The notes beneath the pieces are model-generated. The model was given only the letters and a program-made list of their open reading frames with translations. It made no database searches and was not told the origin of the DNA. Both the position numbers and the translations under genes were made by a program. From Raillietiella orientalis (taxonomy: Eukaryota), in assembly GCA_036172245.1 (NCBI GenBank), contig JAYWIR010000126.1, positions 62,001-92,261 on the forward strand: a stretch of DNA of 30,261 bases, read 5' to 3'. The first letter of the stretch is position 1. The number at the start of each line of letters is the position of its first letter. Shown piece after piece: positions 1 through 28,234 of this stretch.

Positions 1-1545
1 GAGGTATGCGAAGGAGGTCCTTCGTCCGCTTTTTTGCTTCCACGGGGTCGAGGCAAACAAAAAGCAAGGGGCGGAGGATGGAGGCCGCGAAGGCGTTCCA
101 AACCGCGGCCCGTTCCGGCAAGTGAAACTTTCCTTCCAGGAACGGGCCGATCGCCGTCTCGACTTTTTGGAGGCAGCTGGAACACGCTTCCGCAGGGGAG
201 AAGTCCCCCAACGGCACACCGAGGTACTTGATGCACCTCACCGTGGGGATCCCTAGACGGACCCAGTCCTGCTGCCCTGCGCACGTCGCTCCAGCTGGCA
301 ACACTGTCGACTTCGCCCTGTTAACATGTAATCCGGCCCCACGGCTAAGCAGGTCGAAGAAATCTCCGACTGCCTCAGCCGGGGTGGACATAGGTAAGAG
401 GAGCAGAAGATCGTCGGCATACGCCGCTACAGCTGGCGTGCCGAAGCACGAGCTCGGCAAGGGGGCCAAAGTCTCCATGTACGCTCTCAGCACCAACTCA
501 GCGTAGGTGCTAAAAAGCAGGGGGCTGAGGCTGTCGCCCTGCCTTATGCCCCGCCGCACCGGCACGCCATACACCTTTTGTCCACTGAAATCAATCGAGA
601 TTATCGCGTTTCGGCAGCAAGAGCGCAGGTAGGTAATCAAGGAGGGTGGAAAGCCCATGCGACCCAGGAGCTCCAAGAGGAGTTCCTGATCAACACAGTC
701 GAATGCCTTATGCAGGTCGACTGAGATCGCTAAGGCCCCTTTTCCCGCATGAGCGTCCCCACCCTGTCCTACTGGCGGCCCTAAAGTAGGGTTGCAAATT
801 TTTCCTTTCCCTTCTTTCTTACTCCGCTGCGCGTGCATCCGTGTGCTCGCGAAGAAGAGGTTGTCGTCCATACTTCACCCTGGAACAGCGTAAGTCTGTT
901 TCGGGCTAATTATGGAATTGGACACCTGCCCTAATCGCGACGCCCACAGCCCGGCAATGAACTTGGCGTCCGTGTTTACAATCGTGTTGGGACGCCAGCT
1001 ACAATGTTTCCTGAGGTCTCCTCCCTTCGCGAGGAGCCTCACCCTGGCTGACCGAAACGAGGCGGGAACATCGCCTTCGTCTCGAATTCGCCTTGTCAAC
1101 TCGAGCACCAGGGGGGACAGTTATTCCGCAAAACTCTGAAAGAACTCCGCGAACAAGCCGTCCTCCCCTGGCGCCTTACGCCTCTTGAGCATTTTGATAC
1201 CGGCGAGAATTTCACCGGTCGTGAAAGGCTCATCGAGGTTTTCTATCTCCTCCTCCCCTATCGCCAAGGAACCGCTCATGAGCAATCGCCGCGAGGCGTT
1301 TTGTTCGAGTGGTGTTTTGGCGTGAAGGGAAGAATAAAAACACCGCACGAGATTCCGTACCGCAGACGGAGACGAACGTTCCCGGCCCAGGTCATCCGGC
1401 ATGCTGGCTGACCCGGATTGCCAGGCTTGTCGCTTGGCTCCGGCGCGGTATTCGGCCAGGCGACGGACATTGGGGTTCCTCTCTTGACGACGCGCGTGCA
1501 AATACGCGCGTTCGTTGCGAGCCCCTTTGCTGAATTCCCGCTGTG
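1..1545 (-). mobile_element. LINE copy A: ORF2 fragment (EN-RT linker, RT, thumb), degenerate; runs off the window start and is interrupted at its upstream side by element B
   Basis: Minus-strand translations give RKAPGEDGL, WRPNTIVNTDAK, QTYAVPG, DLHKAFDCVDQ, GIRQGDSLSP and AYADD (about 410-425), with frameshifts and stops. Confidence 0.93.
1529..1545 (+). repeat. Left TSD of element B (GCTGAATTCCCGCTGTG); partner at 28124-28140
   Basis: 14/17 identity to GCCGAATCCCCGCTGCG, which directly follows the 3' tail at 28123; all three mismatches are C/T; reads as host ORF2 codons Q-R-(E/G)-F-(S/G) on the minus strand. Confidence 0.8.
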
Positions 1546-1571
1546 GAGAGCGGACGTGCTTTTCCTGCGCT
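1546..1571 (+). promoter_or_regulatory. Conserved 5'-terminal motif GAG(A/T)GCGGACGTG-pyrimidine tract-GCGCT, putative internal promoter; also at 3989, 10897, 18663, 26011(-) and 28141
   Basis: The same motif begins all six intact 5' ends at or within a few nt of the junction; promoter function is inferred from general LINE biology. Confidence 0.6.
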
Positions 1572-1640
1572 ACGCTTGCGTGGCAAAGCGGGTGGTTTTT
1601 CTTTCTTGAGTGATTTGGGCGTGCCCATCGTCGGTGTCCG

Positions 1641-3520
1641 ATGGCAGCGTTGCCAGAGGACACCGCGATGAAAGTAAGCGTGATGGAGGCTTGTTCGTCC
1701 ATACAGCCTACTGGATCAGGGGCATCCGCCCCGGAATCGTCCCCGGCGACACCGAGGTCATGGAGCGCCATGGTGGCCGTGCCTAGCGTGGAAGCCATGG
1801 CCGAGATGGAAGCCTACAAGTAAGCGGGGTATAAACCCTCGCAAGTTTACAAGGTAGGCAACCTTTTCGATGGGCAAACTGAACGCGCCTTTACGAAGGC
1901 GCTGCAGAACGCCAATATTTTCGAAAAAGATCTCGACGGCCTCTGCGTACTCAGCGGCGGGCAGCGGGTCGAGGTGGTATGCAAGGATATCACCTTGGCC
2001 CGACACCTGATCACCGACCCGCTGATCGTTGATGGTCGGAAGATCTTGCTTCTAAAGATGGAGCGCTCGGTGGTGGTCCATCTCACTGGGATCCCCAGTC
2101 ACATGACAAGGTCAGCGGTTCGCGAACAGTTAGAAAAGCACGCAGAAGTGCACGCGTTGTTGCCGAACTCCACGATTTTCCTAGGCTACAATAGCCTTTT
2201 CGGAGTTCAAGCTGCGGCGCGTATCACCGTAAAAGAGGGTGGTGCGCTTCCCCACAAGCTGGAGGTCTGCCAAGAAGCGGTGGACCTCTGGTACGTGGGG
2301 AAACGCCAATTTTGTGGTTACTGCAATGCAGTAGAGCATTTACGAAAGAGGTGCCCGAACATTGTGTGCCACCTATGCGGCGAAAAGGGTCACGTTCCTC
2401 GCGTGTGCCCCAAGCGCCCCACCCCGGTGCCCCCTGCCGCCAAAAAGGCGCAGGGAAAACGTGGAAAGTTGGTAGGAAGACCAGCTCGCAAAAATGGCCG
2501 TTCCCAACTGCCAGCCTCCCTTCCTCCCGTACAGACGTCGGAGGAAAGAGCTCCCGTGAACGCGGAAATGGAGGAGGGTTGGCAGCTGGTTCAGGCCAGA
2601 AAAGAAAAAAAAAAAGAAATTAATGCCAGAAGAAAAGTCGTAGAAGAAAACTGCCGGCAACAAGAAAAAAGCCGCGCCGGTTTCAAAAAAAAAAGCAACT
2701 CCGCTAATGCTCGGTGGCACTCGAACGCTTAGCCGTTCCTGCCGAGTCCGCCAGCGGCAATGTTCGCAGAACAGTTGATGCGGACGCGATGAATACTCGC
2801 GTGGACGAGCCCATTCTACGTTTAGAGGGTGAGACGCGAGACTCGCGCGCCGACAACCAGGACGCCGCGATCGACAAAGCCGCGGAGGAGCCCGCGGCAA
2901 CGTCCGCCGTCAGCGATGAAGCCGCGCTCGATAAGGTCGCGGAGCAGTGCGCGGCAACCGTCGCCGCTGGCGAAGACGCGGCCTTCGAGAAAGCGGCAGA
3001 GGAGCACGCAGCAACGCTCGCCGAGCGCCGAATCCCGTCGCGCAAGGGCGTACGCAGGTCGGCTCCGACCAAGATGGCCCCCGCAGGTGAGTGCGACCGG
3101 GGGGCCGGTAGCGGATCCTCCTCCTCGGAGGCAACCCCCAGGAAGTCGGGACGCAAGTCCCAGAAACCCAGGAGGAGCCTCCCCTCCACCAGCGAGGAGG
3201 AGAAACCGGAAGGAAGCGGCAGCGTGGGAATCCCGAAGGGGGAATACCCACGTCCGGAAGCCGTCGAGTCGGCCACCCCCATGGAGGAGGGAGAGCAGGG
3301 GGGTGAAGTCCTCCCTGCAGTCGCGAAACCTGAGCAGCCCGAACCCATATAGGAGGGCGAACAGGTAGGCGCGACTCCACATGCTGGTGATCCGGCCGAC
3401 GCGCCGGCATCGATGGAGGAGGAGGAACAGGTGCCTTCAGTACCTGTCCCCCATCCCCCTCCACCTAGCATCCCGCCCCAGCAGGTGGCGTACGCCGCAT
3501 CGCCGTTTTCCCAGGACTAA
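1641..3520 (+). pseudogene. ORF1 of B (gag-like nucleic-acid-binding protein, two CCHC knuckles, basic and acidic disordered tail)
   Basis: ORF pieces 1641-1823, 1974-2732 and 2714-3352; CGYCNAVEHLRKRC and CHLCGEKGHVPRVC; premature stops and a frameshift in A-runs near 2600-2700. Confidence 0.9.
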
Positions 3521-3988
3521 CACCTGGGCTCGCCAGTCGCCGTCGGATTCGCGCGGCCTGTTGGAACGTCAACGGGCTGAGCGACGACGGGAACAGGCGA
3601 GATACGGCCGACACCCTGCGTGAGCTCCACCTGGCGCTGCTGCAGGAGATCCACGTGATCACCGCGGCAGACGCCCAGGAGATCGAGACGATCGCGGGTG
3701 GTCGGTTGTATTGGCGATGCGGCCTCCGCAACACCTGTGGGGTCGCGTTCTTCGTAAAGCCGGCCATAGACGCTGCTGTAAAGGGCGTGCGGTTTGATGA
3801 CGACGGTCGGATCGATCAGCTGATTCTCAGCTGGTCCGACTGGATCGAACTAATCGTCACAAACGTGTATGGCCTAAGCGGCAAACAGGGGTATTGCGAC
3901 TGCACCAGGCTGTTGGAAACCCTGAAACGCGACTGGCTGGCGGATACCAATGTGGGAAAGGCTCACCTGATAGCGGAAGATTTCAATC
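3520..3988 (+). pseudogene. ORF2 of B, part 1 (APE endonuclease N-terminal half); start codon reads ACA
   Basis: WNVNGL, LLQEIH, TCGVAF, TNVYG and LIAEDFN motifs; cut by insertion of C. Confidence 0.9.
3980..3988 (+). repeat. Left TSD of element C (ATTTCAATC); partner at 9894-9902
   Basis: Perfect 9-bp direct repeat; host frame ...EDFN|LRLL... is restored when C is removed. Confidence 0.92.
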
Positions 3989-4162
3989 GAGTGCGGACGT
4001 GTTTTTCTTCGCTCTCATCTCCGTGCTTTCATCCGCTTCATCTTGGCGTCGTACATTTTGACGACGATGTCGACCCAACCCTAAGCTCCTGAAGTTGGAG
4101 GAACAGTATCCGGATCTGCAATCGCAGAACCGACGGCCGCCTCCACTTCGTCTTTCTCGCCA

Positions 4163-5989
4163 ATGGAGAGGAGTTTTGCTGACGTTGCTGCCACAGCAGC
4201 TGTCAAAGGGAAACCACTCGACGAGTCGGAGTTGCGGGCATACGTAACCCAAGGCTATAGACCTGCTCTCCGATATAAGGTGAGTGGTTTTCTTTCTGCG
4301 CTCGACGGGAATCAGTTCAACGATGAACTGACCCGTGTTGGCGTGCGGAAGGAGGAACTTCTCGCCATTATGCCCATTAAAGACATGGGCTATTTCAAGG
4401 TGCGCTGCAAAGACGCTGCACTTGTGCAACGCTTGCTGCGCACCCCGTTGTCGATCCGTGGCCAGAAGGTCTTCCCGACCGCCATGGACGACTCATTTGT
4501 GGTGGAGATTTTCGACATCGAGTTGCAAATCTCCGATACTGATATTCGGAACGCGTTGGCGAAATTCGCCACGGTCCATGCGCTGTGGAGGGTGCGTAGC
4601 AACCTCAAGGACTTCCCGTCCATTCACAGCGGAGTCGCTGGAGTCCGGCTTACAATGCCGGACCGCCGTCTGCTGCCCACGAAACTACATGTGAAAGACA
4701 CGGTCGATCACCTGTGGTTCGTGGGCAAAGTAAGAACGTGCGAGCAATGCGGGAAGAAGGGGCATTGTTTGGATAAATGCCCCTCTGGAAAATGCCGTTA
4801 TTGCAAACTATCCGGGCACCAATTGAAAAATTGCCCGGATCTTTTGCGAAAAAAGGCAGCCGCGGAGCTTCGTCTTAAAAAACGAAGCGCGGATAAAAAG
4901 AAAAAATCTGCGAAAAACCTGGAGACCCCACGGCAGAAATTCCGAAAAAAGGCGAGCTGGAATGTCGCCCCAAAGCAGCAGGAAACCTCGCACGCGAAGC
5001 CCTGCGCACCCCCTCTCGCGGCATGGGAGCCGCAAAAGAATGGGTGCGGGGAATCCGGGGCAATGGAAAGTCCCCCTAGGCGCAATAGCTGTCCTTCCCA
5101 AGCACGCCCGGCTCTCTCGGAGTTCGAGCAACCGGCGGGGACGCCAATGGACAACGGCGGTAAGGACACTTCCAGTACCGTCAGATCCATTCCTTCACCT
5201 CCTGCAGTGGCTGAGAAGCCCAAATCGGGTAAGAAGGGTTGTGCCGTGTCGACTTCGGAAGTCAACAAAAAAAAATCCGCGTCGCGATCCAACACCGTGA
5301 AAGCGAAGAAAAATCTCACGCTGTCGCAGTCGGAGAGCAAGCTCTAGACTGGCGCGGATGCCATGCCAACGAAGGGATTAAAAGCCCTTCCGAAGGCAGC
5401 GTCCATGACGAGCGTGTCGAAGCCATCCAAAGTGCTCCCGTTCAAAGACGCGGATGGCTTCAAAGATGGCCATGGAGCACAATCTCCATTTACGGCGCCA
5501 CGCGAAGTGAGGGACCGTAATGAAGTAAAGAAGACTTCAGCAAAGGTACTTCGTGCAACTGCGCGTGAGCACGCTGAAAACGCGCGCGCCGGGAAAGCAG
5601 CCGTCACCAAAAGCGATGCTGTGGTGACGGAAAACAAAAACAGGACAGCTCTCAATCCAGCAGAACCTGTCACTGCTTTGCGGAAGGCCGAAACCCGATC
5701 GAACATGCGACGGTCGGACACCGAAATGGATGCCGTTCCGATCACCGAGACGAGGACAACTCGCTCGAAAGCGTGTGCGCGCCGATCAAAAGTAGGCAGC
5801 CAGGCAACGCTCGCCGCGAAGCAACGCGAAGTCTCCACGAAACCCGACGGGTTTCAGCCTGGCGTGTACGCATTACATGCATGCAGCACGATAGAGGACG
5901 GTGGCGACCGTCCTTCCCAGCCAGTCGTGCTGCTCGCCGTCTGCTCGCCGGATAAAGCGAGCAAAAAGCTGCCACCTTCCCAGCAGTAA
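4163..5989 (+). pseudogene. ORF1 of C with one in-frame stop at 5345-5347
   Basis: ORFs 4163-5347 and 5363-5989 share a frame; CEQCGKKGHCLDKC and CRYCKLSGHQLKNC knuckles; SFADVA N-terminal motif. Confidence 0.9.
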
Positions 5990-8900
5990 TGCGGGGAATC
6001 GCGTCTTCTCGTCTTCTGTCCGTAACGTGTTGGAACGTGAACGCACTGCAGAACGACGAGAAGAGGCGATTAGTAGCCAACGCCCTGCGCCCCTTCGACC
6101 TCGCGCTGCTGCAGGTGATTCACGTAATCTCCGACGAGCAGGCAGCCGAAATCGAGAAGCGCGCAGGCGGAACGCTACATTGGCGGTGCGGCGGCGCACG
6201 CACGTGCGGCGTCGCGTTCCTCGTAAGAGGAAAAATGGCGGAAGCGGTGCGTAGTGTTTGTTTCGATGACGACGGACGGATAGACCAGCTTGTCATCAAG
6301 TGGTCCGAGTCCATCGATCGCGTCGTTACGAACGTCTACGCTCCGAGTGGCTCTCGCTACCTCGAAGAAAGAGTAGCTTTCTTTGGTGAGGTGCAGAGCC
6401 ACTGGCTCAACAACTCCGGCTTCCAAGTGGCGCACCTCGTCGATGGGGACTTCAACGTCCGCCTGCTCTCCGACGATTGGAGCCGCTCGAGGAAGCGCGC
6501 TGCCCATCGAGATGTGCGCGTCCGTGCACGCCGCAAACTTGATGGTCAGCGAACCTGGAATGCAAAGATCGCTCGATGACGTTTTCCTCGATGAAAACCT
6601 GCATTCGCGTGTGGGTAGGAGTGGAAGATTGTTGACTGAGCTTTCTGACCACCACAGGTTGGAGTTTGAGATCCTTCCGCCAGGCAGATGGCCTCCGTTG
6701 CCAAGCTGGAGGATGCAGGCGGATTGGCTTAGTCAACCGGAGGATGCGGAGCATCTACGTCAATACCTCCGGGGCTTTGTCATTCAAGAACTTGCAAACT
6801 GGGACGATCTCAAAAGATCTGTCCGCGAGTTCTGTTGCCAATTCCCCTTGCACTGGCTTCCACGCGGTTTCGGAGAGGGCGTGGCCCACAGTAGAGACTT
6901 TCTGCAGGCCCGCACGTTTTCGAGACGCGCGGATGTCGGGCGACTCGCAGAGTACAAGGCGAGGGCAGAGCGCCAGGTCTGGCAGTCCGGAGCAGCATGC
7001 CTGCTGGACGACAAGGGCCAGGAATGTTCGGCCCCAGCCGAAGTACGCCGCATTGTGAGACGCTACTACTCCTCTCTGTACGCGGAATCCCCGACGGAGG
7101 ATATTCTTTCTGAGATACTCCTGTCTCAGGATGCTCGTGTTGTCGGCGAGGAGGAACGCGAACGTCTCAACGAGCCCTTCACGGCGGATGAATTTTCGTC
7201 CGCAATCGCTGAGCTGAACAGACGAAAGTCGCCAGGCGAGGATGGGCTCCCTGCAGAGTTTCATCAGTACTATGCAGTGGAGCTCATTCCCTTGATGCTG
7301 AAACTCGCCACGCTGATGAGTGAATCCGGGAATGTCCCTGATTCCATCCGCTCAGCGAAGGTGCGTCTCCTGCCGAAAGGCGGAGAATTGCGACAACTTA
7401 ACAACTGGCGTCCGATCACCTTGGTGAACTCGGACGTCAAGTTGTTTTCCAAGCTGTGGGTCGCGCGGTTAGGAAGAATCGCGGAATCTGTGGTGAGCCC
7501 GGAACAAACCTACGCGGTTCCGGGACGATCCATGGAGGCGAACATCCTTTTCGCGCGTACATGGATGCAGCTGCAGGAAGTTGTGGCGCAGCAAAGCCAG
7601 GCTGCTGCGAAAGTCACTGACGCAGGCAAAAAGAACAGGCGCCGACGGCAGGAGGGAACGCCAGGTGCCTTGGCGGTCGCGGTCGATCTCCACAAGGCGT
7701 TCCACTGCGTAAACCAGAAGCTGCTTTTGGAGCTTATGGAACGCCTTGGGTTCCCGGCGCAACTCCTGCTGTATTTGCGCGCGTGCTGGCGCCACGCGCT
7801 AACCTGCATCACTTTTAGCGTCTGTTGCGTGTATGGTATTCCCGTTCGTAGGGGCATCCGACAGGGCGACAGCTTAAGCCCGTTGCTTTTCAGCATCTTC
7901 TTTGAGTTGGTGCTAAGAGCATACAGGCTGACGCTGTCTCACTTGCCAAGCTCCTGCCCGGGAACGCCTGCCGTGGCCGCCTACGCTGATGACCTGCTTC
8001 TTCTGCTCCCCATGTCCACCTTGGCGTCCAGTGTCGAGGATTTCTTCGACCTGATTCGTCGGGGAGCGGGCGTGAGCGTGAACAGAGAGAAGAGCGTGGT
8101 CGTTCCTGTGGGTACGTCGTGTGAGGGGCAGTCCGACTGGATCCGCCTGGGGATCCCCACGTGCGAATACTTTAAGTACCTTGGCGTTCCGTTGGGCGCT
8201 TTCGGCGCAGCCGAAGCGTGGGCGGACTGTCCTCAAAAAGCAGAGTTGGCCATCAGCCCGTTCTTTAACGGCAAGTTTACCTTGCAGGAACGGGCGACTA
8301 TTTGGAACATCTTTGTGGCCCCCCTCCTCCGTCCCCGGTTTTTTGTTTTGGACCCCCCCTATGCGGCGAAACAGCAGGCTGAGCGACTGTTCAGGAACGC
8401 TCTCTGGGGTCCGGCGATATCCAAAATCCGCCTTGAAGATTTGTTAGCTCCGCGTCGGGATGCTGGTTTGGGTATCCTGACAATAAAGCTAAGCGGACTG
8501 CAGGTGCAGTTCCGACTGCTGGCACTGTGTGCCCAGGTATGGACATCCCCCCTGTGTGTGCCAGCCCGCATTCTCCTGCGGAGATGCGCCGGCAGCGGAG
8601 GATTTCTCTCGCTTTTGCCGGGCACTCAATACAGGAAGCGGGGTTTCGTGTTTCCATTGCGGCAGTTGACCGCACTTCTGGAAGCTCACTCGTGGATCTC
8701 CTGCCGCTTAATGAACTTTGAAGCTTGGAGGCAAGAGTCTGTTGAATCCTGCGCGGCGTTCCAAGGAATACGCCCTGAAGATCTTCGCCCCCTGCGTCAC
8801 TTTTTTCCACGATCCTTGGAAGAAGTACTGCAGAACGAGGTGAAGTTTTCTACTCTGGCTGCCACGCCTCTTGCCGCAGCGCTGTCTGCCCTCAGGGCAA

Positions 8901-9580
8901 GAAACGACAGTTACGCACCGGCGAGGTGGGAGGTTTCCTGCACGACAGCGGGAAGAACCAAACTCCTTGGCACCTGGAAGACAAGTGAGTTGGCGGACGC
9001 CGCCACTCCTCGTGTTACTGCAAAGGGACTCCTCCGGTGGGCAGAAGAACTTGCTGTCACCCCCGAAGAACTTGTAGTCCCTCCACAGTTTATGGACAGT
9101 TCGCTGCTCCCCCTTGCTTGGAAACAAGCCGTGCTGCTTTTCGTTCACTGGGGTTTTCAGTGCAACGAGCGTTGGCATCGTGACTCCGGGGGACTTGCGT
9201 CTGCGAACTGCGTTCGGTGCGGATCGACGGAGTCGATTCCGCACCTACTTCTGGATTGCGGTGTCCTACAAGGACTGTAGCGTAGGCTGGCAACAGCACT
9301 AATGCATCCCGTGGACACCGCAAGAGACTTGCTGCGACGATTTTTCACGCCGAGCTAGCTTTCACTAAGCGCAAGGATTGCAGCCATCGGTTGTATACGC
9401 GCGATAGTTTCCGTCCGCCAGGCGTTGGTAATCAACGGATAGCACCAAGAGGTAATCAGCAAAGCATCCTTCTACATGCAGGCATCATCTAGATGGCCTC
9501 ATTTGACAGAGGACACAAAGAGGAATCTCGCCGCAATACACCGCCGGTTTACACACCCTCAGCAGCGGCCAACCCGGTGA
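5989..9580 (+). pseudogene. ORF2 of C (APE-RT-CCHC), frameshift near 6480 and stops from 9278
   Basis: WNVNAL, NVYAP, GDFN, LSDH, KSPGEDGLP, WRPITLVNSD, DLHKAF, GIRQGDSLSP, YADD, KYLGV, CVRCGSTESIPHLLLDC. Confidence 0.95.
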
Positions 9581-9863
9581 TCATTGCCCTACCCTCCATT
9601 AACTAATTTTGTATTTTCTTTTTACACCCGCGTCCCCATGGGCTCCGGAACATTTTAGGTGCTCATCGTTTAAATCCCCGTGAGTACGGAGCCTAACCGA
9701 AAACCCGTTACCCTTCCCTCCAGTTTTTGATTTTTGTTTGTTTCCTCTCATTCCTTCCACGCTGCGAGCGGTTTGTTTACCAGGCCTGCGTGCAGGTAAT
9801 TTTTCTATGTTCTCTGTCGTTCTGTTGGTTGGGTAAATTGTCCCTGACTAGTTTATTATTATT

Positions 9864-9893
9864 AATAAACGCCCCGGCGTGACCGGGTGATAA
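9864..9893 (+). terminator. AATAAA followed by a terminal GC hairpin and very short A tail (3' end of C); equivalents at 16359-16388, 28092-28123, 10237-10266(-), and a variant at 20635-20665
   Basis: AATAAACGCCCCGGCGTGACCGGGTG directly before the TSD. Confidence 0.75.
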
Positions 9894-9902
9894 ATTTCAA
9901 TC

Positions 9903-10236
9903 TCCGACTGCTAACAGGTGAGCCCAAAACACAATAGAACGCGATGAACGAGTTGTACGCCGCCATGCGTGCGCGTAACTTGTTCGCGGGTGAGTAGGGA
10001 ATGGTCTTTAGCATCGAATACGTCTTCCTCGACGCTGACCTGTGTTCACAGGTCGGCAAACGGGGGAGGGTTGCGTCGACGTTGTCGGACCACTCCCGGT
10101 TAATTTTCGAGATGCGGCCTCGCGACAAGAGACCGCCATCCGGGGATTGGCGTCTACCGGGGGACCGGACGCGACTCTCAGGTGCGAAGGAACACCTTCG
10201 CGAATACCTGAGAGGCGTCACGCTCCGGAATCTCCA
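9903..10236 (+). pseudogene. ORF2 of B, part 2 (APE C-terminal half and linker start)
   Basis: LRLL..., SIEYVFLD, LSDHSRL, WRLPGD, HLREYLRG; ends at the 3' tail of antisense element H. Confidence 0.9.
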
Positions 10237-10449
10237 TTGAAACCCGGGTGCGCCGGGATGTTTATTCTCACGAATAAACCTATACAATCTGTGACTGGAC
10301 CAGTAGTCCAGCGACGCCCTGGAAAGATATAGCTTGCCGGGCTACCGGTGCGCAGACCGGCGCGGTCCACCTTGGCAGCAGAGGAAAGGGGGAACGAAAC
10401 AAAAAGAAAACAAAAAATAAACAAAAATCAGGTAGGGAGCGAGAAGGGA

Positions 10450-10896
10450 TCAAAGTCTGCTGTGAGGGTCCGTCATCCTCTGGAGGATGCCGGCAAGCTG
10501 TTTCTGCGTGTGTGGTTCCAGATGGGGCCATCGCGTCGCCATCCTGAGGAAACGGGCGGCATACACGTTGGCATCCCTGTCGCTGGATCCTCCCGTCTCT
10601 TTGCTCCATGCCACGACGATCCCGCGTAGGCAGCACAGGGCTGAAAGCGAGGCCGCTGGAGGCAGGGCGTCACGGACGAAGAGGGGGCCCAAAGCGTCTC
10701 TGGGGTTGCCTCCGGGGATCCCCAGGGCTGCGGCAAACCGTTCTTACAAGGGACGGAGGGCAACACAATCCACTAACAGGTGGGGGAGGTATTCCCTCTC
10801 CCCGCACCTGACACAATAAGGGTTGACACCCCCCGCGTCCAGTGGTGTCGGCAGGCGTTGCAAGGAAGCCCCCAATGCAACACCAGCACCGCCGAC
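10450..10896 (-). pseudogene. ORF2 of H, C-terminal part
   Basis: VLHWGLPCNA, HLLVDC, PLFVRDAL, RWPHL motifs homologous to C-termini of E, G and B. Confidence 0.88.
10885..10896 (+). repeat. Left TSD of element E (AGCACCGCCGAC); partner AGCAGTGCCGAC at 16389-16400
   Basis: 10/12 identity; host H reading frame restored on removal of E. Confidence 0.85.
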
Positions 10897-10971
10897 GGTC
10901 AGACGTGTTCTCTGCGCGCTCCTGACTCGCTCGACTTTATTGGTGTAGTGCGGTGCATCAGTGGTCGGGGG

Positions 10972-12573
10972 ATGGCAGAAATGCCTGATCCCGTTACTAG
11001 TGAATGTGGCGTGGGGGCCGGGCGAACGTCCCCCCTACCCATGGAGATAGGGGCACCTGCCCCGTAAGCTTCGTCCCCCGCGCCGGCGAGGGACTACAGC
11101 GCCGTGGTCGCCGCGCCATCTGCAGCGGCCATCGCCGAGGCCCAGGCCTACAAGGCCTACAACTACAACCCGAGTCTGCTGTATAAGTTAGGCCGGGTGT
11201 TTGATGACCGTGTGGCGCGCTCCTTCGAGAAGGAGCTCCACCGTTTGAACATTAACAAGGAGGATCTGCTGGGTCTCTCCATCCGCAGCGGGGGACAGCA
11301 TGTCGAGTTGACCTGCATAGAAGCAGGGTTGGCGCAAAGACTACTGCGAACCCCCGTCAGGGTCGAGGGCCGCCAGATCTTCTCTGTCCCGGTGGACAAC
11401 TCAATAGTTGTCCACCTTCGTGGAATCACCGTGCGGATGTCACCGAGCGCCGTTAGGGCTGAACTCAGCAAATTCGGCACCGTACACGCGCTGTGGCTGA
11501 AGCCCAACAGGTTCCGTACTTATGACGGACTCCTGAGCGGACTCGCCGCGGCACGTGTGACTGTGAATAATGACATTGGGGTTCCCCATAAACTAGTAGT
11601 CGACGGAGATTCTGTCGACATCTGGTATCTGGGGAAACCCAAATACTGTGCGTTTTCTGATGGTACGGGGCACGTGAAGAAACGCTGCCTCAACATCACT
11701 TGCCGCAAGTGCGAGGCAATCGGGCACACAGAAGAAGTGTGCCCCAAAAAGACTTCGCGCGCGCCGGCTGCTGCCGTGAGCGGCACGAACGCGAGCAAGA
11801 ATCCTGGCAAGACCAGGCCGCCGTCCTAAAATACGGTTGACCCGGAGCCAGCCAAAAAGGGCATCCCGACCACCCCGTCTGCAGAAACGCAGGCAACCGA
11901 GGTGGAAGGAGAAGAGCCTGGCTGGCAAAAGGTCAGTCCAAAGAAAAAGAAAGAAAAAAAGGACGTAAATAATAAAAATAAAGTCCCTGCAAAAACCGCG
12001 AAACCCGCGAAAAAGCAGGGACTGAAAAAATGCACGGACGCACTGGAGCGCCTTGCAGACGCCGAAGTGCCGTGCGAACAGGACGTTGCCGTGTGCAACA
12101 TCGCTGACAGCCCCGTCGCTGTGCAAACAGCGTCCGAGGGCTGCGGCGAGGGGGAGAGCCGCGATGACGCGGGCTTTGCAATAGCAGCCGCCGAGCTCGC
12201 CGCCAGTCAGCAGCCTCCCGCAAAGGTCGGGAAGAAGGCCGTTCGACGTCCGGCCGAGAGGAGGGGGACCGGGACCTCGGACTCGGACCCGGAGACCGGA
12301 CACGCACCATCCGCATCTGCACCCCCGAGGAAGACCGGAAGGAAAATCCGTAACCCGAGGAGGATCGTCTCCTCCGAGGATGGGTAATCCTCCGGAAACG
12401 AGGGTGCGGCGAGCGTGGGAGAGATGGACACGAGTCCTGAACTCCCACGATCGGTCGAGACGGAGCCGATGGAGACGGAGGGGGTCTTCGAGCCGCCCCC
12501 CACCGCACAGGAGAAAGCCGGCGTCCCGCCCCTAGGTGAGGCGGGAGACGCAGCATCACTTTCTTAGCAGTAA
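10972..12573 (+). pseudogene. ORF1 of E with in-frame stops (11065, 11827, 12385)
   Basis: ORF pieces 11104-11829 and 11902-12387 are in one frame; WYLGKPKYC, CRKCEAIGHTEEVC, GWQKV. Confidence 0.88.
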
Positions 12574-15500
12574 TGCCGGGACTCGCCACCTGCCGTCAAA
12601 TACGCATCGCCAGCTGGAACGTCAACGGGCTTTGCAATGACGGCAGGAGACGAGACATAGCTGCCACCTTGCAAGCCTTCGACCTCGTGCTGCTGCAGGA
12701 GATCCATGAGATTTCCGCAGAACATGCGCGGGAGATCGAACGGATAGCAGGTGGTCAGCTTATGTGGCGATGCGGCCACCGCCGTACGCGCGGGGTCGCT
12801 TTCCTTCTGAAGCCTGCCTTACAACGCGCGGTGCGGAAAGTTCGTTTCGATGAGGCAGGTCGGGTCGGGCAAATCCCCTTCAGGTGGTCCGACTCCATCA
12901 ATCTCGTCGTCACGAACGTGTACGCGCCGAGCGGCGGTCACGCGCGCGTGGCACGGACGGCGTTTTTCCGTGCGTTCAAGCGCGACTGGCTGTCGGAGGC
13001 AGGCGCGCGCACGGCGCACCTGATAGCCGGCGATTTTAATATTCGCCTGCTATCAGGTGCGGCGAGGACAGAGGCCACCCCGGTTAACGAGATGTGCGCT
13101 GCGGTGCACGCATCCAACTTGTTAGCTGGGGATACCGGGATGGAACGGAGCGTGGACCACGTCTTCCTCGACGATCATCTGCGCTGTCGCGTGGGCAGGC
13201 GAGGTAAGATACAGTCCGCAGTCTCCGACCACTCCCGCGTGGAACTCGTCATTCGCCCGCGCGACAGGGGGCCTCCCGCGCAGGCGTGGCGTCTACCGGG
13301 GGACTGGCTGACCAAGCCAGGCGCAGCGGAACACCTCCGCGCGTTCTTGCGAGGTTTCAGCCTGCAGACGCTCGACGACTGGGACGATTTGAAAGTCTCG
13401 GTGCGAGAGTTCTGCCAACAGTTCCCCATGGACCGTCTCCCGAAAGGATTTGGAGAAGGTGTTCGGAACGATAGGGCTTACCTGCAGGCCCGTAGTTACT
13501 CCCGAACACCAGACGTCCGAAGACTGGCGGAATTTAAAGCCGGGGCCGAGCGGCAGGCCTGGCAATCGGGGTCGCCCAGCCTGCTGGACGACGAAGGCCA
13601 AGAGCACTCGGCCCCGGCAGAGGTGAGTAGCCTAGTGCACGACTATTATTCTTCCCTGTACACCAGGGTGCCTCCAGACCGGGAATTTTTCCAATTTTTG
13701 CTTCCGGACGGTGCCCCGGCGATCGGGGAAGAAGAGAGAGTACGCCTGGACGAGCCTTTCACGATGGGTGAAATCATCACCCCAATAGGGAAGCTCAAAA
13801 GGCGGAAGTCACCGTGGGAAGACGGCCTGCCCGCGGAGTTTTTTCAGTGCTTCGAGGCGGAGCTGGCTCCCCTGGTGCAGCGGCTAACGCTGCTGATCCG
13901 GGAGACAGGAGACGTTCCCGCCTCCTTCCGATCGGCACGTATGCGTCTCCTACCGAAAGGAGGAGACTTACGGAACCTCAACAATTGGCGTCCGATTACC
14001 GTACTGAACGCGGACGCCAAGCTGGTTGCGAAGCTATGGTCGGAGCGAATGGGGCGGGTGGCGGAAAGCTTCATCAGCCCGGAGCAGACCTACGCTGTTC
14101 CCGGGCGAAGCATGGACGCCAACCTGCTCTTCGCGAACACCTGGTTCGAACTTCAAAGAACCAGAATGAATGGAGGGAACAAGGTCGGCAGCCCGATTTG
14201 CAGGACGTCCGCTGGTGGTTCGCGGGATAGTAGGGAGAGAGAAGGGGCCCTCGCGGTCGCTGTCGATTTGCGGAAAGCATTCGACAGTGTCGACCAGGAG
14301 CTCCTGCTGGAGCTTCTGAAGCGCTTGGGCTTCCCGGCATCCTTATTGGCCTTTTTGCGCTCTTGCTGGCGCGACGCGCTGACCAACATTTCTTTCAGGG
14401 GAAGGAACGTGTTCGGTGTGCCGGTGCGCCGCGGAATACGGCAGGGTGATAGCTTGAGCCCCTTGCTCTTCAGCACCTACTTCGAGTTGGTGCTGATGGC
14501 ATTCAGGGAGACTCTTGGTCGCCTGCCGCGCGTGTGCCCAGGTACACCGGCCTTGGCGGCGTATGCGGACGATCTTCTGCTGCTGCTCCCCATGTCCACC
14601 TGGGCGTCGGCAATCGAAAACTTTTTCGAGCTGCTGCGTCGCGGGACAGGACTGGAGGTGAACAGAGGAAAGTCGTCCGTTGTTGCAGTCGGTTCCTCGT
14701 GGGCAGAGCAGCTAGACTGGTCTCGCTTGGGGATCCGCACGGTACGGTACCTTAAGTACCTCGGTGTGCCGTTGGGGGACTACTCCCAACGGAACAATGG
14801 TCTTGCTGCCTCCAAAAGGCCGAGAGAGCGATCGGCCCGTTCCTGGATGGCAAGTTCTTCTTGCCGGAACGTGCCGTGCTGTGGAACACTTTCGTGGCCC
14901 CCCTGTTTCGCTCCTTGCTTTTTGTTTGTCTATCACCCCGTGGTGTGAGAACACGTACAAAGGACCTCCTCAGAATCGCCATCTGGGGCAGAGAAAGGCC
15001 CCGCGCGCGTTGGAAGGACTTGTGCGCCCCTCGTCGCGATGGGGGCCTTGGCCTCCTCACGCTGGAGCGCCTCGAACTGCAGCTGCAGTTCCGAACAATC
15101 GCCCTAGTGGCGAAGTTGTGGAGCGCCAGCTGGTGCGAGCCTGCACGATGCCTGGATCAGCGAGTCGGCGGCTGTGCGGGAATGTCTACCTTCCTAGCGC
15201 GCCTAAAAAGCCGGTACCTGTTCCACTGCGGACTGGCTCTTCGGCGAGTGGCGAAGCTGACCAGGAAGAACACCTGGATCTCCTGCCGGCCCGCGAACAA
15301 CACTTCCTGGTTGCAGGAAAGCCTTCGCACGTGGGCCCAGATCGAGGAAGCGAGCCCGGAGTTGCGGCATCGAATGCTGCACTCCTATCATAAGAGGCGC
15401 TCGCTGCAGGACATCATCGTGCAGCCCGCCTTGAGTGCGTGGGCTGAGAAGACCTCCCTTGCCACAGCTCTGTCTCACCTGAAAGAACATCTGGGCAGTA

Positions 15501-16138
15501 GCCAGCCGGCCATGTGGGAGGTCCGGTGTACGATCAGGGACACTGAGAAAGAACAAGGTGGTTGGACCACGGGTTAGCTTGCTGATGCCGCGATCCCAAG
15601 TTCCCCACCGAGAGGACTGTTGCGCTGGGGCGAGCTGCTGTGCATCCCGCGGGATGAACTTGAGTGGCCCCCAGTGCTGAGGAATACTCGGGCCCTCCCC
15701 CTAAAGTGGCAGGAGTCGGCGTTCCTGGTGTTGCACTGGAGACTCCCCAGAAACGCCCGCCGCTCTCATTGGACGAGGGGGGTTGTGGACCCAAACTGTG
15801 TTAGGTGCAGGGAACGAGAAACTCTCCCGCACCTGCTCGTTGACTGTGTTGCCCTGCGGCCCCTGTGATTGCGCTTTGCAACAGCCGTTGGTGCACCCTT
15901 GCACGCTCCCAGAGACGTTTTAAAGCGCCTCTTCGTGCGCGACGCCCTTTCGCCTGCCGCAACCCTTGCAGCCCTCTGCTGCCTACAAGGGATTGTAGCG
16001 GCTTGGAGCACCGCCACTGGTGGACCGAACGATAGGGACATCTTGTGCTACGCCCTGCGCTTCCTGAGGACGGCAGCCAGATGGACCCATCTGGGACACA
16101 TGCAGTTTGAACTTGCCGGCATCCTGCAAAGGATGTAG
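12573..16138 (+). pseudogene. ORF2 of E (APE-RT-CCHC); 791-codon open N-terminal portion, frameshift near 14785, later stops
   Basis: SWNVNGL, LLQE, NVYAP, GDFN, SDH, WRPITVLNAD, DLRKAFDSV, RQGDSLSP, YADD, CVRCRERETLPHLLVDC. Confidence 0.95.
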
Positions 16139-16400
16139 AGGACGTCTCCAGCGGAACGTGATCCCTTCCCCAACCCCTCCCTGCTTTTGTAAATAGTGTT
16201 TTCTTTTTGTTTTTTTCTATTTGTCCCTTCCCCCTCCGCTGCCGAGTCGACCTTGGGAGCCTGCGTGCTGCCCACTCGGCGAGTTCAGAAGAACATCTTC
16301 TGAACACTGTAGGGGAGATAGCCCTACATTTGCTTGTTTATTTTTTTTTCATTAAAGAAATAAACGCCCCGGCGCACCCGGGTGTAAAAGCAGTGCCGAC

Positions 16401-18655
16401 TGTTGCCACTTCATGGGGAGGGTGCGGGAGTCCATGAGCACCGGGGGCCACTCGAGATGTTCCTCTGGAACATCCAGCAGCTCTCATCAGCGCAACAGTC
16501 CATTTGGGGTGGTCCTAGGGGTCGCAGCGTTGGTGAGCTGACCCGTCCTCCAATCCCCGATCTTCTTTGCCCTGCTGGCGAACTTGACAGTAACCTCCCA
16601 TTGTGCCGCGACGTCGCTGCCCAGATGTTCCCGTAGGGTAGGCAGTACCGCAGGAAGGGAGGTTCTGTGTGCCCACGCTCTCCTTCGGGGATTCTCGATG
16701 ATTTCTCGGAGCGTGCGGTGGGCATGCGGCCCGAACAGAGCTATGCGCTCGTGTTGCGGGCTCGGCTCCTGAATCATCGCCCACGTGCGGACGGTTTCCT
16801 GCAACCAGGCAGGACCGTTCGCGGGGCGTACGAGGAACCGCGCCGAGTTGTTCTTCACCAGCTTGGCCGCCCTCCGAAGTTGAAGTCCGCAGTGGCAGAT
16901 GGGGCTTCGGAGTGCAAATTAAGACGAGAGTCCCGCATTGCCAATGGCCCGCTCGACGAGGAGACGTTCAGGGAGGCACCAAGGGGTGCACCAATTTTCT
17001 GCCGTAAAGGCAACAACTCGGAACTGGAGCTGTAGCTCCAGCCGCTCCTACCTCAGGAGGCCCAGACCACCATCCCAACGAGGAGCGCACAAATCCAAAA
17101 GACGGACTGGGGGCCTCCCTCTGCCCCAAAGGGCGATCCTCAGGATGTCCTTCGTCCTCTTCGTTGAATCCGCTCAGGGGGGGCAAAAAAAAAGCAAGGG
17201 GCGAAGGAGGGGGGCCGCAAACGCGTTGCACGCCGCGGCCCGTTCCTGCAGGTAGAACCTGCCGTCCTGGAACGGGCCGATCGCCGCCTGAGCCTTCTGA
17301 AGGCAGCCGGACCACGCTTCCCCATGGGAGCAGTCCCCCAACGGCACACCAAGGTACTTGAAGTACCTCACCGTGGGGATCCCCAAACAGACCCAGTCCT
17401 GCTGCCCTGCCCACGCCGCTCCGACTGGCATTACGGACGACTTCGCCGTGTTCACCGTCAGTCCTGTTCCCCGACTCAGCAGGTCGAAGAAGTCCTCGAC
17501 CGCCTAGGCCGGGGTGGACATAGGCAGCAGCAGCATAAGGTCGTCCGCGTACACCCAAACCGCAGGCGTATTGGGACAATCGCCCGGCAGGTGCGCAAGA
17601 GTCTCCATGTACGCTCTCAGCACCAATTCGAAATAAGCGCTGAAGAGCAAGGGGCTGAGGCTGTCTCCCTGCTGTATGCCGCGTCGCACCGGTACGCCGT
17701 ACACGGTGAATCCCATAAAAAAAACATTAATAAGCGCGTCGCGCCAGCTGGAGCGCAGGTAGGCCAGCAAAGAGGCCGGGAAGTTCAAGCGTTCCAGAAG
17801 CTCAAAAGGAGTTTCTGGTCGACGCAATCGAATGCTTCATGCAAATCGACTGCTACCGCGAGGGCTCCTCTCCCCTCCCGACCATCTCGTCTTCCACCGA
17901 CGGACGCATTGGAATTCCGGTTGCTTATTATGCTCCTTCCTTGTTGGAGCTCTAACCATGTGGAAGTGTGGAACAGGTTGGCCTCCATACTTCGCCCGGG
18001 AACAGCATATGTCTGTTCCGAGCTGATGAAGATGTTGGTGACCCGTCCCAGGCGCTCTGCCCACAGCTTGGCTAGCAACTTGGAGTCCGCATTCACTATT
18101 GTGATAGGATGCCAGGTGTTCATGCTCCGTAGGTCTCCTTTCTTCGGGAGGAGCCGCACCTTTGCTGAACGAAACGAGGTGGGAACGTCACCTGTTTCAC
18201 GGATCAGCAAGGTGAGCTGATGTACCAGGGGAGTAAGCTCTGCCGCGAAAGCTTGATAAAACTCCGCAGGCAGGCCGTCCTCCCCTGAAGCCTTTCGCCT
18301 CTTGAGCTTTCCGATGGCGGAGGTGATCTCGCCCATCGTGAAAGGCTCGTCGAGGTTCCTTTTCTCCTCCTCCTTGATTGCTGGAGCACCTTCCGGAAGC
18401 AGGAGTTGTGAGACAGCCTGCTCCGGAGGCGCCCTGGCGTACAGGGAGGAGTGAAATTTCCTCACTATCCCGCGTTTCTGAGCGGGAACCGAGTGCTCCC
18501 GGCCCTGGTCGTCCAACATGCTGGCCGACTCGGATTGCCAGGCTTGCCTCTCGGCTCCCGCTCGATACTCTGCTAACCTGCGCATGTCAAGGGTTCTCGC
18601 GTAACGTCGGGCCTGAAGATAGCACCTTTCGTTACGCGGCCCCTCCTCAAATCCC
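16401..18655 (-). pseudogene. ORF2 of H, middle part (linker, RT, thumb)
   Basis: ORFs 17785-18585, 17504-17827, 17174-17455 and 16487-16858; DLHEAFDCVDQ, QQGDSLSP, YADD, KYLGVPL. Confidence 0.92.
18645..18655 (+). repeat. Left TSD of element G (CCTCAAATCCC); partner CCCCAAATCCC at 20666-20676
   Basis: 10/11 identity; encodes host G-F-(E/G) on the minus strand. Confidence 0.82.
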
Positions 18656-18756
18656 TCTCCTAGAGAGCGGACGTGTTTTTCCGGCGCTCCGCGAACGAGC
18701 AGCGGAAAGCGGTTTTTTCTAGTTCAGTGTGTGCTTTTTCACATCGTTGGTGTCCG

Positions 18757-19623
18757 ATGGAATCGCTGCCAAAAGACACCACGATGGAGGTAGGCGTGAT
18801 GGAGGCTAGCCCCCCCCCACGACCTACAGAATCAGAAGCATCCGTCCCGGAATCGCTCTCGTCTCCCAAGACGAGGAGCTGGAGCGCCATGGTCACCGCG
18901 CAGAGCGCGGAAACCTTGGCTGAGCAAGCGGCCTACAGGGCCTCCGGATATAAACCATCCTTGGTTTATAAGGTAGGAAACCTGTTCGACGGTCGCACCG
19001 CGCGTGTCTTTAGCAAGGCACTACAGAAATTCCCCGTGCGTGAGGAGGATCTTGACGGCCTCGCCGTACTCAGCGGGGGGCAACGCGTGGAGGTCGTCTG
19101 CAAAGACCTAGCCTTAGCACAGCGCCTCATCAACACCCCGCTGAATGTGGCTGGCCGAAAGATCCTACCCGTTAGCATGGACCGCTCCGTACTGGTGCAT
19201 CTAACGGGGATCACGAACCGCATGACGCGCTCTGCGGTGAACGCGGAATTGAAGAAATACGGAGATGTGCACGCGCTTTGGCCAAAGCCAACCATTTTTG
19301 ACGGCTATAACAGCCTCTTAGGTGGCCAGGCAGCAGCGCGTGTCAAAGTGAACGAGAATGCTGGGTTAGCCCACAAACTGGAGGTAGGGAAGGAGCTAGT
19401 TGACCTCTGGTACGTGGGGAAACCCCGCTATTGTGGCTACTGCGATGCAGTAGGGCATGTGCGCAGGCGGTGCCCGAATATCGAGTACCACTTGTGCGGA
19501 GAAAACGGACACGTCCGTCGTGTGTGCCCTAAACGCCCTGGTCAGAGATTACGGCTGGACGGTATGCAGCCCCGCCAACTCCTCCGCCTGGCTAGAGGAA
19601 TCCGTTGCGACGTGGGCAGCTGA
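18757..19623 (+). CDS. Truncated but open ORF1 of G (288 aa from ATG, zinc knuckles, aberrant C-terminus)
   Basis: Uninterrupted frame MESLPKDTT...CGYCDAVGHVRRRC...YHLCGENGHVRRVC (second knuckle has C to Y); expression unknown. Confidence 0.6.
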   Translation: MESLPKDTTMEVGVMEASPPPRPTESEASVPESLSSPKTRSWSAMVTAQSAETLAEQAAYRASGYKPSLVYKVGNLFDGRTARVFSKALQKFPVREEDLDGLAVLSGGQRVEVVCKDLALAQRLINTPLNVAGRKILPVSMDRSVLVHLTGITNRMTRSAVNAELKKYGDVHALWPKPTIFDGYNSLLGGQAAARVKVNENAGLAHKLEVGKELVDLWYVGKPRYCGYCDAVGHVRRRCPNIEYHLCGENGHVRRVCPKRPGQRLRLDGMQPRQLLRLARGIRCDVGS

Positions 19624-20449
19624 ACCTCCAGACTTCCCCGGACTGGAACCGCCTTCGATTCGGTCCCAACGACCGCTGCACACTGCGGAGTAAACTGGAG
19701 TGTCCCGCCAGGAGCACGTGGGCGCAGCCACCTTTCTAGCTTTGACCCTGCCCTTCCTCCGGAGAACTTTAACCAGCGGCCGCAAGCCGAATTGGCAAGT
19801 CTCCTGCCGAATCGCAGGCAAGGAGAAGAAGATGAGCGGTTAAACCATGGGAGAACTGGCGGATGCCACGACCCCGAGTGCCCTCCCTCGTGGACTTCGT
19901 CGATGGGGCGAGCTGCTCGGCATTCCGACGAATGACCTGAAGTGGCCCTCAATACTGATAAGATCCAGTCTTCTCCCCCTGAAGTCGCAAGAGTCGGCGA
20001 TGCTGCTGTTGCACTGGGGTCTACCCTGCAACGCGCGCCGCTTTCACTGGACGCGGTAGAGTGTAAGGCCTGAGTGTGCCAGGTGTGGAGAGCGAAAATC
20101 GCTCCCCCAGCTTCTAGTTGACTGGGCTGCCCTCCTTCCCCTGTGGGAACGGTTCGGGACGACCTTCGGTCTCCCAACGGGCAGCGCGGCCAGAGACGTT
20201 CTTCGGCCCCTCTTCGTGCGGGACGCCCTACAGCCCGCTGCAGCTCTCGCAGCCCTCTGCTGCATCCGGGGCATCGTGGCGGCATGAAGCGACATTCTTG
20301 ACGAAGAAGTGGATGCCAACGTGAGGGATGTCATCCCGTATGCGGTCTGCTTCATGCGGAGAGCAGCGAGATGGCCCCATCTGGGAAGCATGAAGATGGA
20401 CCTGGAGGGAATCCTGCGAAGGATGGACCCTCCTCTATGTGGAACGTGA
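19538..20449 (+). pseudogene. ORF2 C-terminal remnant of G
   Basis: AWLEESVATWA, ELADATTPSALPRGLRRWGELL, LLLHWGLPCNA, RWPHL, with stops and frameshifts. Confidence 0.85.
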
Positions 20450-20676
20450 TCTTTTCCTCTCCCTTCAAACTCTTTGTGTTTTCCTTTATTTTTATTTTTA
20501 ATTTTGTTTTGATCCCCATCCCCCTCCACTGCCGAGGAGCGTCACGCTGGGCTGCGTCCCGGCGTCCCGGCAGGTCCGGTGTTGTGTGGCTATTAGTGGG
20601 GCCTTGTACCACGTTTTCTTGTAGTGTTCTTTACAATAAACGCTTCTTGCGTTCCTGAATGGGAACCCCAAATCCC

Positions 20677-21553
20677 GCAGGTAGGCGATGCAGGGGGAAC
20701 TGGTCGCAGAACTCCTGGACCCACCGCTTGAAGCGGTCCCAGTCCTGAAGTGTCTGCATCCAGAAGCTCCGAATAAACGTGCGGAGGTGCTCAGCCGCGT
20801 CGGGAAACTTCAGCCAGTCCCCTGGCAGACGCCACGCTGACGAGAGGGGGCCCTTGTCGCGCAGATGCACTTCGAACATGATCCGACCATGGTCCGACAG
20901 CTCGAATGGTACCTTGCCGCGCCTGCCACCCGAGAGCATTGGTGCTGATCAAGGTACACGTGATCGATGCTGCTTTCCATGGCCGTGTCCCCAGCCAACA
21001 AGTTGCGCGTGTTCATTTCTGCGCACAACTCGTTGACGCGGTCGTTCAGTGTATCCGGCGCACCTGAAAGCAGGCGCAGGTTGAAATCACTTGCGATCAG
21101 GTGCGCTTTGCGAACTCCTTCATCGGTCAGCCAATCGCGTCTCAGGGCAAGGTACAATTCCCTTCTTGCCTTCGCCCTCAACGCGGAGTTTCTGCTAGGA
21201 GCGTATAGGTTGGTGACGACCAGGTCGATAGAGTCGGACGAGCTGAGAGTCAGCTGACCGACGCGACCTGCGTCATCGAACCGAACGTCCTTTATTGAGG
21301 TCTCGATGGCTGGCCGAAGCAGGAAGGCGACACCGTTTGATTTCGCGGTGTCGCAACGCCACAACAGCCGCCCACCCGAGATCCGTTCGATCTCCCGAGC
21401 TTGATCTCCGGAGATCACATGGATCTCCTGCAGCAGCACCAGGTCGAAGGATGTCAGGGTGGCGGCCACGTCACGCTTCTTGCCGTCGTCGCTTAGCCCG
21501 TTCACGTTCCAACAGGCGATCAGAAGACGACGGCGAGAGGCGATTCCCGCCAT
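20677..21553 (-). pseudogene. ORF2 of H, APE endonuclease part, frameshift near 20940
   Basis: MAGIASRRRLLIACWNVNGL, LLQEIH, NLYAP, SDFN, IDHVYLD, LSDH. Confidence 0.92.
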
Positions 21554-25923: not shown

Positions 25924-26016
25924 CGCCGCCTGATCGACCAGCGAACCACACGACGCTTGCACTGGGGGAGACTTCCTGGCACGAGGAGCACCGAGAAAAC
26001 ACGTCCGCCCTAGAGC

Positions 26017-27913: not shown

Positions 27914-27989
27914 TCCCTTCGCTGCCCCCCAACCTCATTTGTTTGTTTGCGTTTTTGTTCTTATTTTCGTTTTTCCCCATCCCCTTTCG

Positions 27990-28034
27990 CTGCCGGGGAG
28001 TGCCACGCCGGGCTGCGTCCCGGCGTCCCGGTAG
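27990..28034 (+). other. Conserved 3' UTR stem-loop with CTGCG(T/C) loop; homologues at 9777-9799, 10344-10361(-), 16241-16280 and 20544-20565
   Basis: Perfect 8-bp stem ACGCCGGG/CCCGGCGT around CTGCGT, nested in CTGCCGGG/CCCGGTAG; same loop with different paired stems in other copies. Confidence 0.75.
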
Positions 28035-28123
28035 GTCCCGTGCAAAAGGCCGTGAGCGGGGCCTGGTACCGCAATTGTAAAGTTTTTTATAAATAAACGC
28101 CGCGGGCGTACCCGGGTGGCAAA

Positions 28124-28140
28124 GCCGAATCCCCGCTGCG
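28124..28140 (+). repeat. Right TSD of B and left flank of B' (GCCGAATCCCCGCTGCG)
   Basis: Matches 1529-1545; a 17-nt island of antisense host ORF2 between a 3' tail and a 5' end. Confidence 0.8.
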
Positions 28141-28234
28141 GAGAGCGGACGTGCTTTTCCTGCGCTCCGCCTGCTTGGCAAAGCGAATGGTTTTTTTTCC
28201 TGAGTGATTTGTGCGTGCACATCGTCGGTGTCCG

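Follow-up and report, generated by a model that had tools for sequence, protein, structure and literature searches.

Three described systems come close to the stretch of DNA considered here, a 30,261-nucleotide (nt) piece of Raillietiella orientalis (contig JAYWIR010000126.1, positions 62,001 to 92,261 of the forward strand), which is called the window below and is made up of long interspersed elements (LINEs) inserted into one another. As described in published reports, Zepp and Zepp-like (ZeppL) elements, L1 LINEs of the green algae Coccomyxa and Chlamydomonas, form GC-rich nested clusters of tens of kb by targeting existing copies (PMC3446292, PMC8226300), and Zepp carries an (A)n tail (PMC3747384). 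Published work likewise describes Cnl1 of Cryptococcus, an element without long terminal repeats (non-LTR), as inserting preferentially into itself to give nested arrays, in tandem orientation at subtelomeres (PMC9942834), and Tx1 (Tx1L) of Xenopus as targeting another transposon, Tx1D (PMC6719617). The Tx1 group and the R1 clade contain LINEs with an apurinic/apyrimidinic endonuclease (APE) that have sequence-specific targets in multicopy DNA (PMC6719617, PMC3747384).

The window is like each of these in part. With Zepp and ZeppL it shares a nest that contains only LINEs and targets existing copies, 30,261 bp of it here, and an L1-like set of domains. Zepp, however, lies in tandem arrays of one orientation made mostly of 5'-truncated 3' ends, whereas in the window the insertions are mostly antisense, two elements (C and D) are full length and a third (G) has both its ends; and where Zepp has its (A)n tail, the window elements end in a hairpin and two to four A. 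Self-insertion and nested arrays recall Cnl1, but Cnl1 is tandem at subtelomeres, whereas the lineage of most interest here, lineage 1, is antisense at the linker between endonuclease (EN) and reverse transcriptase (RT) in the second open reading frame (ORF2), and the host organisms are unrelated. Like Tx1L, lineage 1 is an APE-type LINE with an apparent sequence target in multicopy DNA (as seen in one window); unlike Tx1L, it targets coding sequence, namely that of ORF2 in its own family. What sets the window apart from Zepp, Cnl1 and Tx1 is the combination of an antisense orientation that does not vary, a site fixed to the codon within the EN-RT linker and ends of hairpin plus A2-4, and the mechanism proposed for it below is moderately supported. 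The literature searched gave no description of a codon-precise antisense linker site like that of lineage 1; the original Zepp paper lay outside that search and may bear on the point.

Insertions at one word of ORF2

Self-comparison and tblastn find in all 30,261 nt of the window (GC about 58-60%) only a nest of LINEs with APE and RT, all of one family, and no other sequence. There are eight LINE-in-LINE junction events. Those that concern the linker involve the following features, given with strand; amino acid (aa) positions are those of ORF2, and TSD stands for target-site duplication.

1..1539, minus: host LINE A, ORF2 from the G-F-G linker word through RT (tblastn match to aa 304-800 of C ORF2; RVT_1); groups with K; passes the left window edge, with the upstream half absent
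1529..1539, minus: linker target word in A, host sense GGGAATTCAGC, adjoining the 5' end of B
1540..3988, plus: 5' part of insert B, lineage 1; ORF1 and the EN of ORF2 to aa 167 (Exo_endo_phos)
16390..18655, minus: middle part of host LINE H, RT to linker word; the left TSD copy is 18645-18655
18656..20665, plus: insert G, lineage 1; complete 5' and 3' ends, open ORF1, internal deletion of about 3.4 kb near 19540-19556
20666..22838, minus: 5' part of host LINE H, EN and part of ORF1, 5'-truncated (Exo_endo_phos); the right TSD copy is 20666-20676
26018..28123, plus: LINE K, lineage 1, aa 578 to the 3' end; nearest A in RT, nearest G at the 3' end
28124..28134, minus: what is left of a third host, X, 11 bp reading GG GGA TTC GGC in host sense, between the 3' end of K and the 5' end of B'; same G-F-G word
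28135..30261, plus: insert B', lineage 1, 95.8% identical to B (blastn); passes the right window edge

The most complete case is that of G, which interrupts H on the opposite strand just as the original prediction, made from the letters of this stretch, had said. The 11-bp TSD reads CCTCAAATCCC at 18645-18655 and CCCCAAATCCC at 20666-20676, with one mismatch in 11, and H resumes on either side of it (ORF2 aa 300 onward at 18663->17182, aa 4-315 at 21577->20637). With G excised, H reads CTA CCT GCG GGA TTT GGG GAG GGG CCG CGT AAC GAA AGG, or L-P-A-G-F-G-E-G-P-R-N-E-R. The 5' end of B adjoins A at the homologous G-F-G codons. In host sense, with a slash for the junction, A has GG GAA TTC AGC/AAA GGG GCT CGC AAC GAA CGC and H has G GGA TTT GGG G/AG GGG CCG CGT AAC GAA AGG, a register 1 nt off that of A. 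Both inserts are antisense to their hosts, as predicted.

Some particulars of the prediction need correction. That B interrupts A is borne out by its 5' end, but the TSD claimed for it, 1529-1545, has no partner: the look-alike at 28124-28140 (14/17) belongs to the flank of another copy, B', and B itself is cut at ORF2 aa 278 by the 3' end of H (10236/10237), with no resumption in the window. The two junctions do lie 1 nt apart, but the word quoted for A, 'GGA TTC GGC/', is not in A. It is where the 3' end of K meets the 11-mer GGGGATTCGGC (host sense) at 28123/28124. Nor are just two events visible, since a third, and possibly a fourth, occurred at the same word, at 28123-28141. An 11-mer left between the 3' end of K and the 5' end of B' is the remnant expected from two insertions into the same target cut with an 11-bp stagger. 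It has the same 11-bp stagger and register as the TSD of H, shifted 1 nt relative to H, and both K and B' are antisense to the word. So corrected, the observation in the window is real.

Within this one window, all four lineage-1 termini (B, B', G and K) fall at the G-F-G word, antisense and with an 11-bp stagger, and the same-site inserts form a single lineage, as had been supposed. None of the four insertions of other lineages (C, D, H and J) is found there: D lies in the E-D-F-N codons of B, C near the 3' end of H, H at aa 278 of B, and J at aa 578 of K. The window has six linker sites. Those of A, H and X are occupied, their words fitting AAWTYCCC-GC, and those of C, D and J are empty, with words that differ from the occupied ones. 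Antisense orientation itself is more widespread, applying to five of the six inserts whose host is identified (B, G, C, H, J), while D is in sense. If insertion were uniform along a 5.5-kb element, on either strand, two more events on the same strand within 1 nt to either side of the first would have a probability of P ~7e-8.

Lineages of hosts and inserts

The window contains three diverged lineages: lineage 1 with A, K, G, B and B', lineage 2 with C, H and J, and lineage 3 with D. ORF1 of B, B' and G is 65-66% identical in aa sequence among the three, 42-50% to C, H and J, and 30-34% to D. The 3'-terminal 1.1 kb of G and K are 73% identical in nt sequence, against 61% to C and H. The likeness of B to G that had been predicted thus holds for ORF1, but the resemblance in the 3' untranslated region is between G and K, not G and B. 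B and B' are much closer to each other, 95.8% identical (1529-3668 versus 28124-30261) and 97.6% in coding sequence, where other pairs reach at most about 83%; they are either the youngest subfamily or a local duplication.

The original prediction had set a subfamily of inserts against the relatives that it enters. That division does not survive the comparison of RT, in which host A is 83% identical (nt) to insert K, against 72-74% to C and H. Since a host groups with an insert, hosts and inserts are not separate classes, and what is seen is targeting of kin or self, not one subfamily preying on another.

Independence of the events and alternative explanations

A single ancestral nested pair might have been copied, by segmental duplication or by composite mobilisation, and its copies might then have diverged. 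A/B and H/G are indeed colinear over the junction (12-2419 versus 17142-19538, 70.6%), and the divergences of hosts and inserts are alike, A and H being 70.0% and B and G 71.5% identical in nt sequence, as clearly diverged as the prediction had stated. The divergence is, however, biased towards synonymous sites. The ratio dN/dS (omega, nonsynonymous to synonymous substitution), calculated according to Nei and Gojobori with the codons of every element anchored to common reference proteins, is 0.27 for A and H (bootstrap 0.21-0.36, 495 codons, dS ~0.97) and 0.17 for B and G (bootstrap 0.11-0.25, 264 codons), whereas simulated neutral decay to the same divergence gives 0.96 (0.78-1.17). The simulation also leads one to expect 9 in-frame stops (4-16) per 507 codons, and A has 2. 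Identity between the two composites is not raised at the junction, at 63% in the junction bin and 57-88% in the others. The low omega and the flat identity imply that hosts and inserts diverged as replicating lineages before insertion. A copied pair would also have to accommodate a register that differs by 1 nt and TSD copies of G that differ at 1/11, and it leaves the junction of K at X unexplained. I find it scarcely credible. The original prediction was right to read the antisense insertions at this site as independent of one another rather than as copies of one nested pair. Spread of an occupied site by gene conversion is ruled out by the lack of any rise in identity at the junction. For B and B' omega is 0.5 (interval 0.19-1.29). 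Counted conservatively, there were at least three independent events, one for G, one for K and one for B and B' together.

A different kind of alternative grants independence but denies lineage 1 any special taste: the family as a whole would have a loose nicking preference (roughly GGRRWTY, about 4 nt, nick) together with regional targeting to LINE clusters, and repeated use of the G-F-G word would be modest luck. About 5-10 nt ahead of the nick, GGAGATT occurs on the first-nick strand of D and GGAAT on that of H, sites matching the loose motif number 4-6 per element, and a window with only LINEs in it implies some cluster-level targeting in all lineages. But the motif was fitted post hoc, the site of C lacks it, the empty words of C, D and J are unlike the occupied ones, and the site has 4/4 of the lineage-1 termini but 0/4 of the other insertions. 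This alternative seems to me unlikely, though it deserves to be taken seriously. Specificity might instead come from the RNA, if copies already at the site make read-through transcripts whose downstream target word anneals to a nicked homologous site in other copies, directing precise reuse; in that case no strictly specific endonuclease is needed. Such pairing operates in site-specific LINEs such as R1, and 3' ends of hairpin plus A2-4, with no long poly(A), mean that priming cannot depend on a poly(A) tract. Against it, any transduced word would be masked by the TSD, and a prior nick at the word is still required; as the main explanation it is quite unlikely. Finally, the junctions could be artefacts of assembly, with paralogous copies joined into chimeras. 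Repeats make up 100% of the region, and the joining of H to B on its 3' side and to J on its 5' side requires deletion or rearrangement. Yet G has a clean TSD and complete termini, mis-joins are unlikely between elements about 30% divergent, and contigs from the sequencing run X1, described below, back D and C as insertions, all of which makes artefact very unlikely.

A preference of lineage 1 for the linker word must also be weighed against several features of the evidence. For B, the 5' junction alone is visible, its own 3' end and second TSD copy not being in the window. X is just 11-17 bp long, and its identity as a linker rests on its likeness to the word in A (14/17). The lineage of A is assigned by way of K, since A shares no stretch with B and too short a one with G for comparison. 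B and B' may duplicate one event, their flanks differing at 2/11 (P=0.075) or 3/17 (P=0.03). A loose motif fitted post hoc, with 4-6 candidate sites per element, raises the probability of coincidence to P ~0.01-0.04, and the words at the first nick in D (GGAGATTGAAA) and in H (CCGGAATCTCCA) are loosely like the G-F-G word. The events number three or four in total, in one 30-kb window, and the repeat nest is known from the assembly alone.

A model for insertion at the linker word

I propose that lineage 1 prefers the G-F-G linker word of its own family's ORF2, a targeting of kin or self of the safe-haven kind, and consider this rather probable. The proposal starts from what is seen in the window, the junctions, the TSD, the independence of the events and their restriction to one lineage, and from these I infer that the endonuclease is specific and that the pattern is valid genome-wide. 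According to the model, lineage 1 (A, K, G, B, B') would integrate through target-primed reverse transcription, cutting the EN-RT linker with an 11-bp stagger at its G-F-G codons (GG-GGA-TTY-GGN in host sense, with the nick right behind). Insertion would always be antisense, as in the three or more independent hits in hosts A, H and X. The ORF2 protein of lineage 1, most simply its endonuclease, would prefer the asymmetric G-F-G word, and the asymmetry would set the orientation; pairing of a read-through transcript with the target may assist. Each new copy would split the ORF2 of an existing copy, of its own lineage (A) or another (H), and a LINE-only island would result.

The model can be pressed further. 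The ORF2 protein of lineage 1 (probably its APE endonuclease) may be truly specific for the antisense G-F-G word, so that members are obligate LINE-in-LINE parasites that disable kin and competitors with codon precision, and build and renew LINE-only islands, possibly centromere-like as in the algae with Zepp and ZeppL. I put this forward tentatively, as possible but doubtful. The original prediction saw in the inserts a hyperparasite that inactivates its relatives. There is no sign of selection of that sort, a safe-haven niche explains the data equally well, and an evolved role as hyperparasite is not shown.

Features of the family

Pfam finds Exo_endo_phos (9.3e-15) and RVT_1 (1.5e-21) in the ORF2 of C, with EN matches also in B, D and H. 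An N-terminal APE endonuclease followed by RT is a feature that the family shares with the L1-type APE LINEs (L1/Tx1 superclade), and the translated ORF2 of D has a C-terminal CX2CX7HX4C motif, a cysteine-histidine motif of a type typical of L1. The best PDB match of ORF2 is human LINE-1 ORF2p at 5.2e-46, with R2 at 1e-16. ORF1 gives only weak matches to CCHC knuckles, under the Pfam cut-off.

All element ends were enumerated. A motif scan gave five 5' ends and four 3' ends, and the divergent ends of C (5') and G (3') were placed by alignment. The 5' ends have the form (6-7 nt)-GAGAGCGGACGTGYTTTTC, that of B being GCTGTG-GAGAGCGGACGTG. At the 3' ends (9894, 16389, 28123, 10237 on the minus strand, and 20665) a conserved AATAAAC precedes a short GC stem (CCGG..CCGG), and 2-4 A close the element; the copy of the stem in G is degenerate. 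The poly(A) or simple-repeat tail that marks the L1 type is absent from all five, and Rfam has no match to the hairpin.

A protein database search with ORF2 yielded two close fragments (78% and 66% identity), the remaining matches having at most 39%. One database protein, P0008, of 1555 aa, matches RT at 35% identity (E 2.6e-110) over 9 separate stretches and may be a gene model that spans another nested LINE cluster.

The rest of the nest

The remaining parts of the window are as follows.

3989..9894, plus: LINE D, full length, lineage 3; in sense orientation within the E-D-F-N endonuclease codons of B
6865..6875, plus: empty linker site in D
9895..10236, plus: continuation of insert B, EN aa 165-278, stopping at the 3' end of H
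10237..10896, minus: 3' terminal part of host LINE H, with its 3' end at 10237
10897..16389, plus: LINE C, full length, lineage 2; antisense in H, near the 3' end of H
13445-13455: empty linker site in C
22839..26017, minus: LINE J, lineage 2, 5' end to ORF2 aa 654; its 5' end adjoins K at K aa 578
23870-23881: empty linker site in J

The TSD of D, (A)TTTCAATC, is 8-9 bp long and lies at 3980-3988, the final 9 nt of the 5' part of B, and at 9895-9902. D's first-nick strand (GGAGATTGAAA) matches the target word of K (GGGGATTCGGC) at 6 of 11 positions, a likeness that may hint at a nicking preference shared by the whole family. C has an 11-bp TSD with 9/11 matching, GCACCGCCGAC at 10886-10896 and GCAGTGCCGAC at 16390-16400.

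Less straightforward is H. Its 3' end joins B (aa 278) and its truncated 5' end joins J (aa 654), at a boundary (22838/22839) whose position is approximate; the rest of B, the upstream half of A and the 3' part of J are absent from the window. With H joined to both B and J and these parts missing, either a large target deletion at the insertion of H or recombination between two H-like copies is needed. A twin-priming inversion was considered for J and K and ruled out, their overlapping stretch being merely 71% identical. G has kept an open ORF1 (319 aa) and its 3' end, but about 3.4 kb is gone from its ORF2. Either G was mobilised in trans as a non-autonomous derivative, or the deletion followed its insertion.

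Evidence from outside the window

In the sequencing run X1, 9% of sampled words from the window are present. Its contigs were mapped to 1401-21400, where 593 were placed: 11 at 99% identity or more, 68 at 95-99%, 115 at 90-95% and 399 below 90%. That spread indicates that X1 contains copies related to those of the window but does not represent the source genome. Among the joints listed (15 of 29), one contig joins 3979->9894, so that a copy without D exists, and another joins 10886->16391, giving a copy without C. At least six contigs diverge just before 19551, at the internal deletion of G (among the loose ends listed, 6 of 489). A metagenome scan with the 5'-end word of lineage 1 met six loci, all by chance, with nothing but the query word (24 nt in locus L001) matching the window. 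In a protein search with the open reading frame that crosses the A/B junction, none of 651 candidates scored.

Implications

Target-specific LINEs and self-nesting LINEs (Zepp, Cnl1) are already known, while the route to self-nesting at the level of sequence is mostly undescribed in the literature examined. Should the preference prove loose, or local to this window, then the nest is an ordinary nested LINE cluster. If the preference is real, it would provide a concrete and testable mechanism by which LINE-only islands arise, through one word of ORF2 used again and again, antisense and with an 11-bp stagger. The targets of APE endonucleases would also be extended by a new kind, namely a motif in protein-coding sequence that is held constant by selection on the very element that is targeted.

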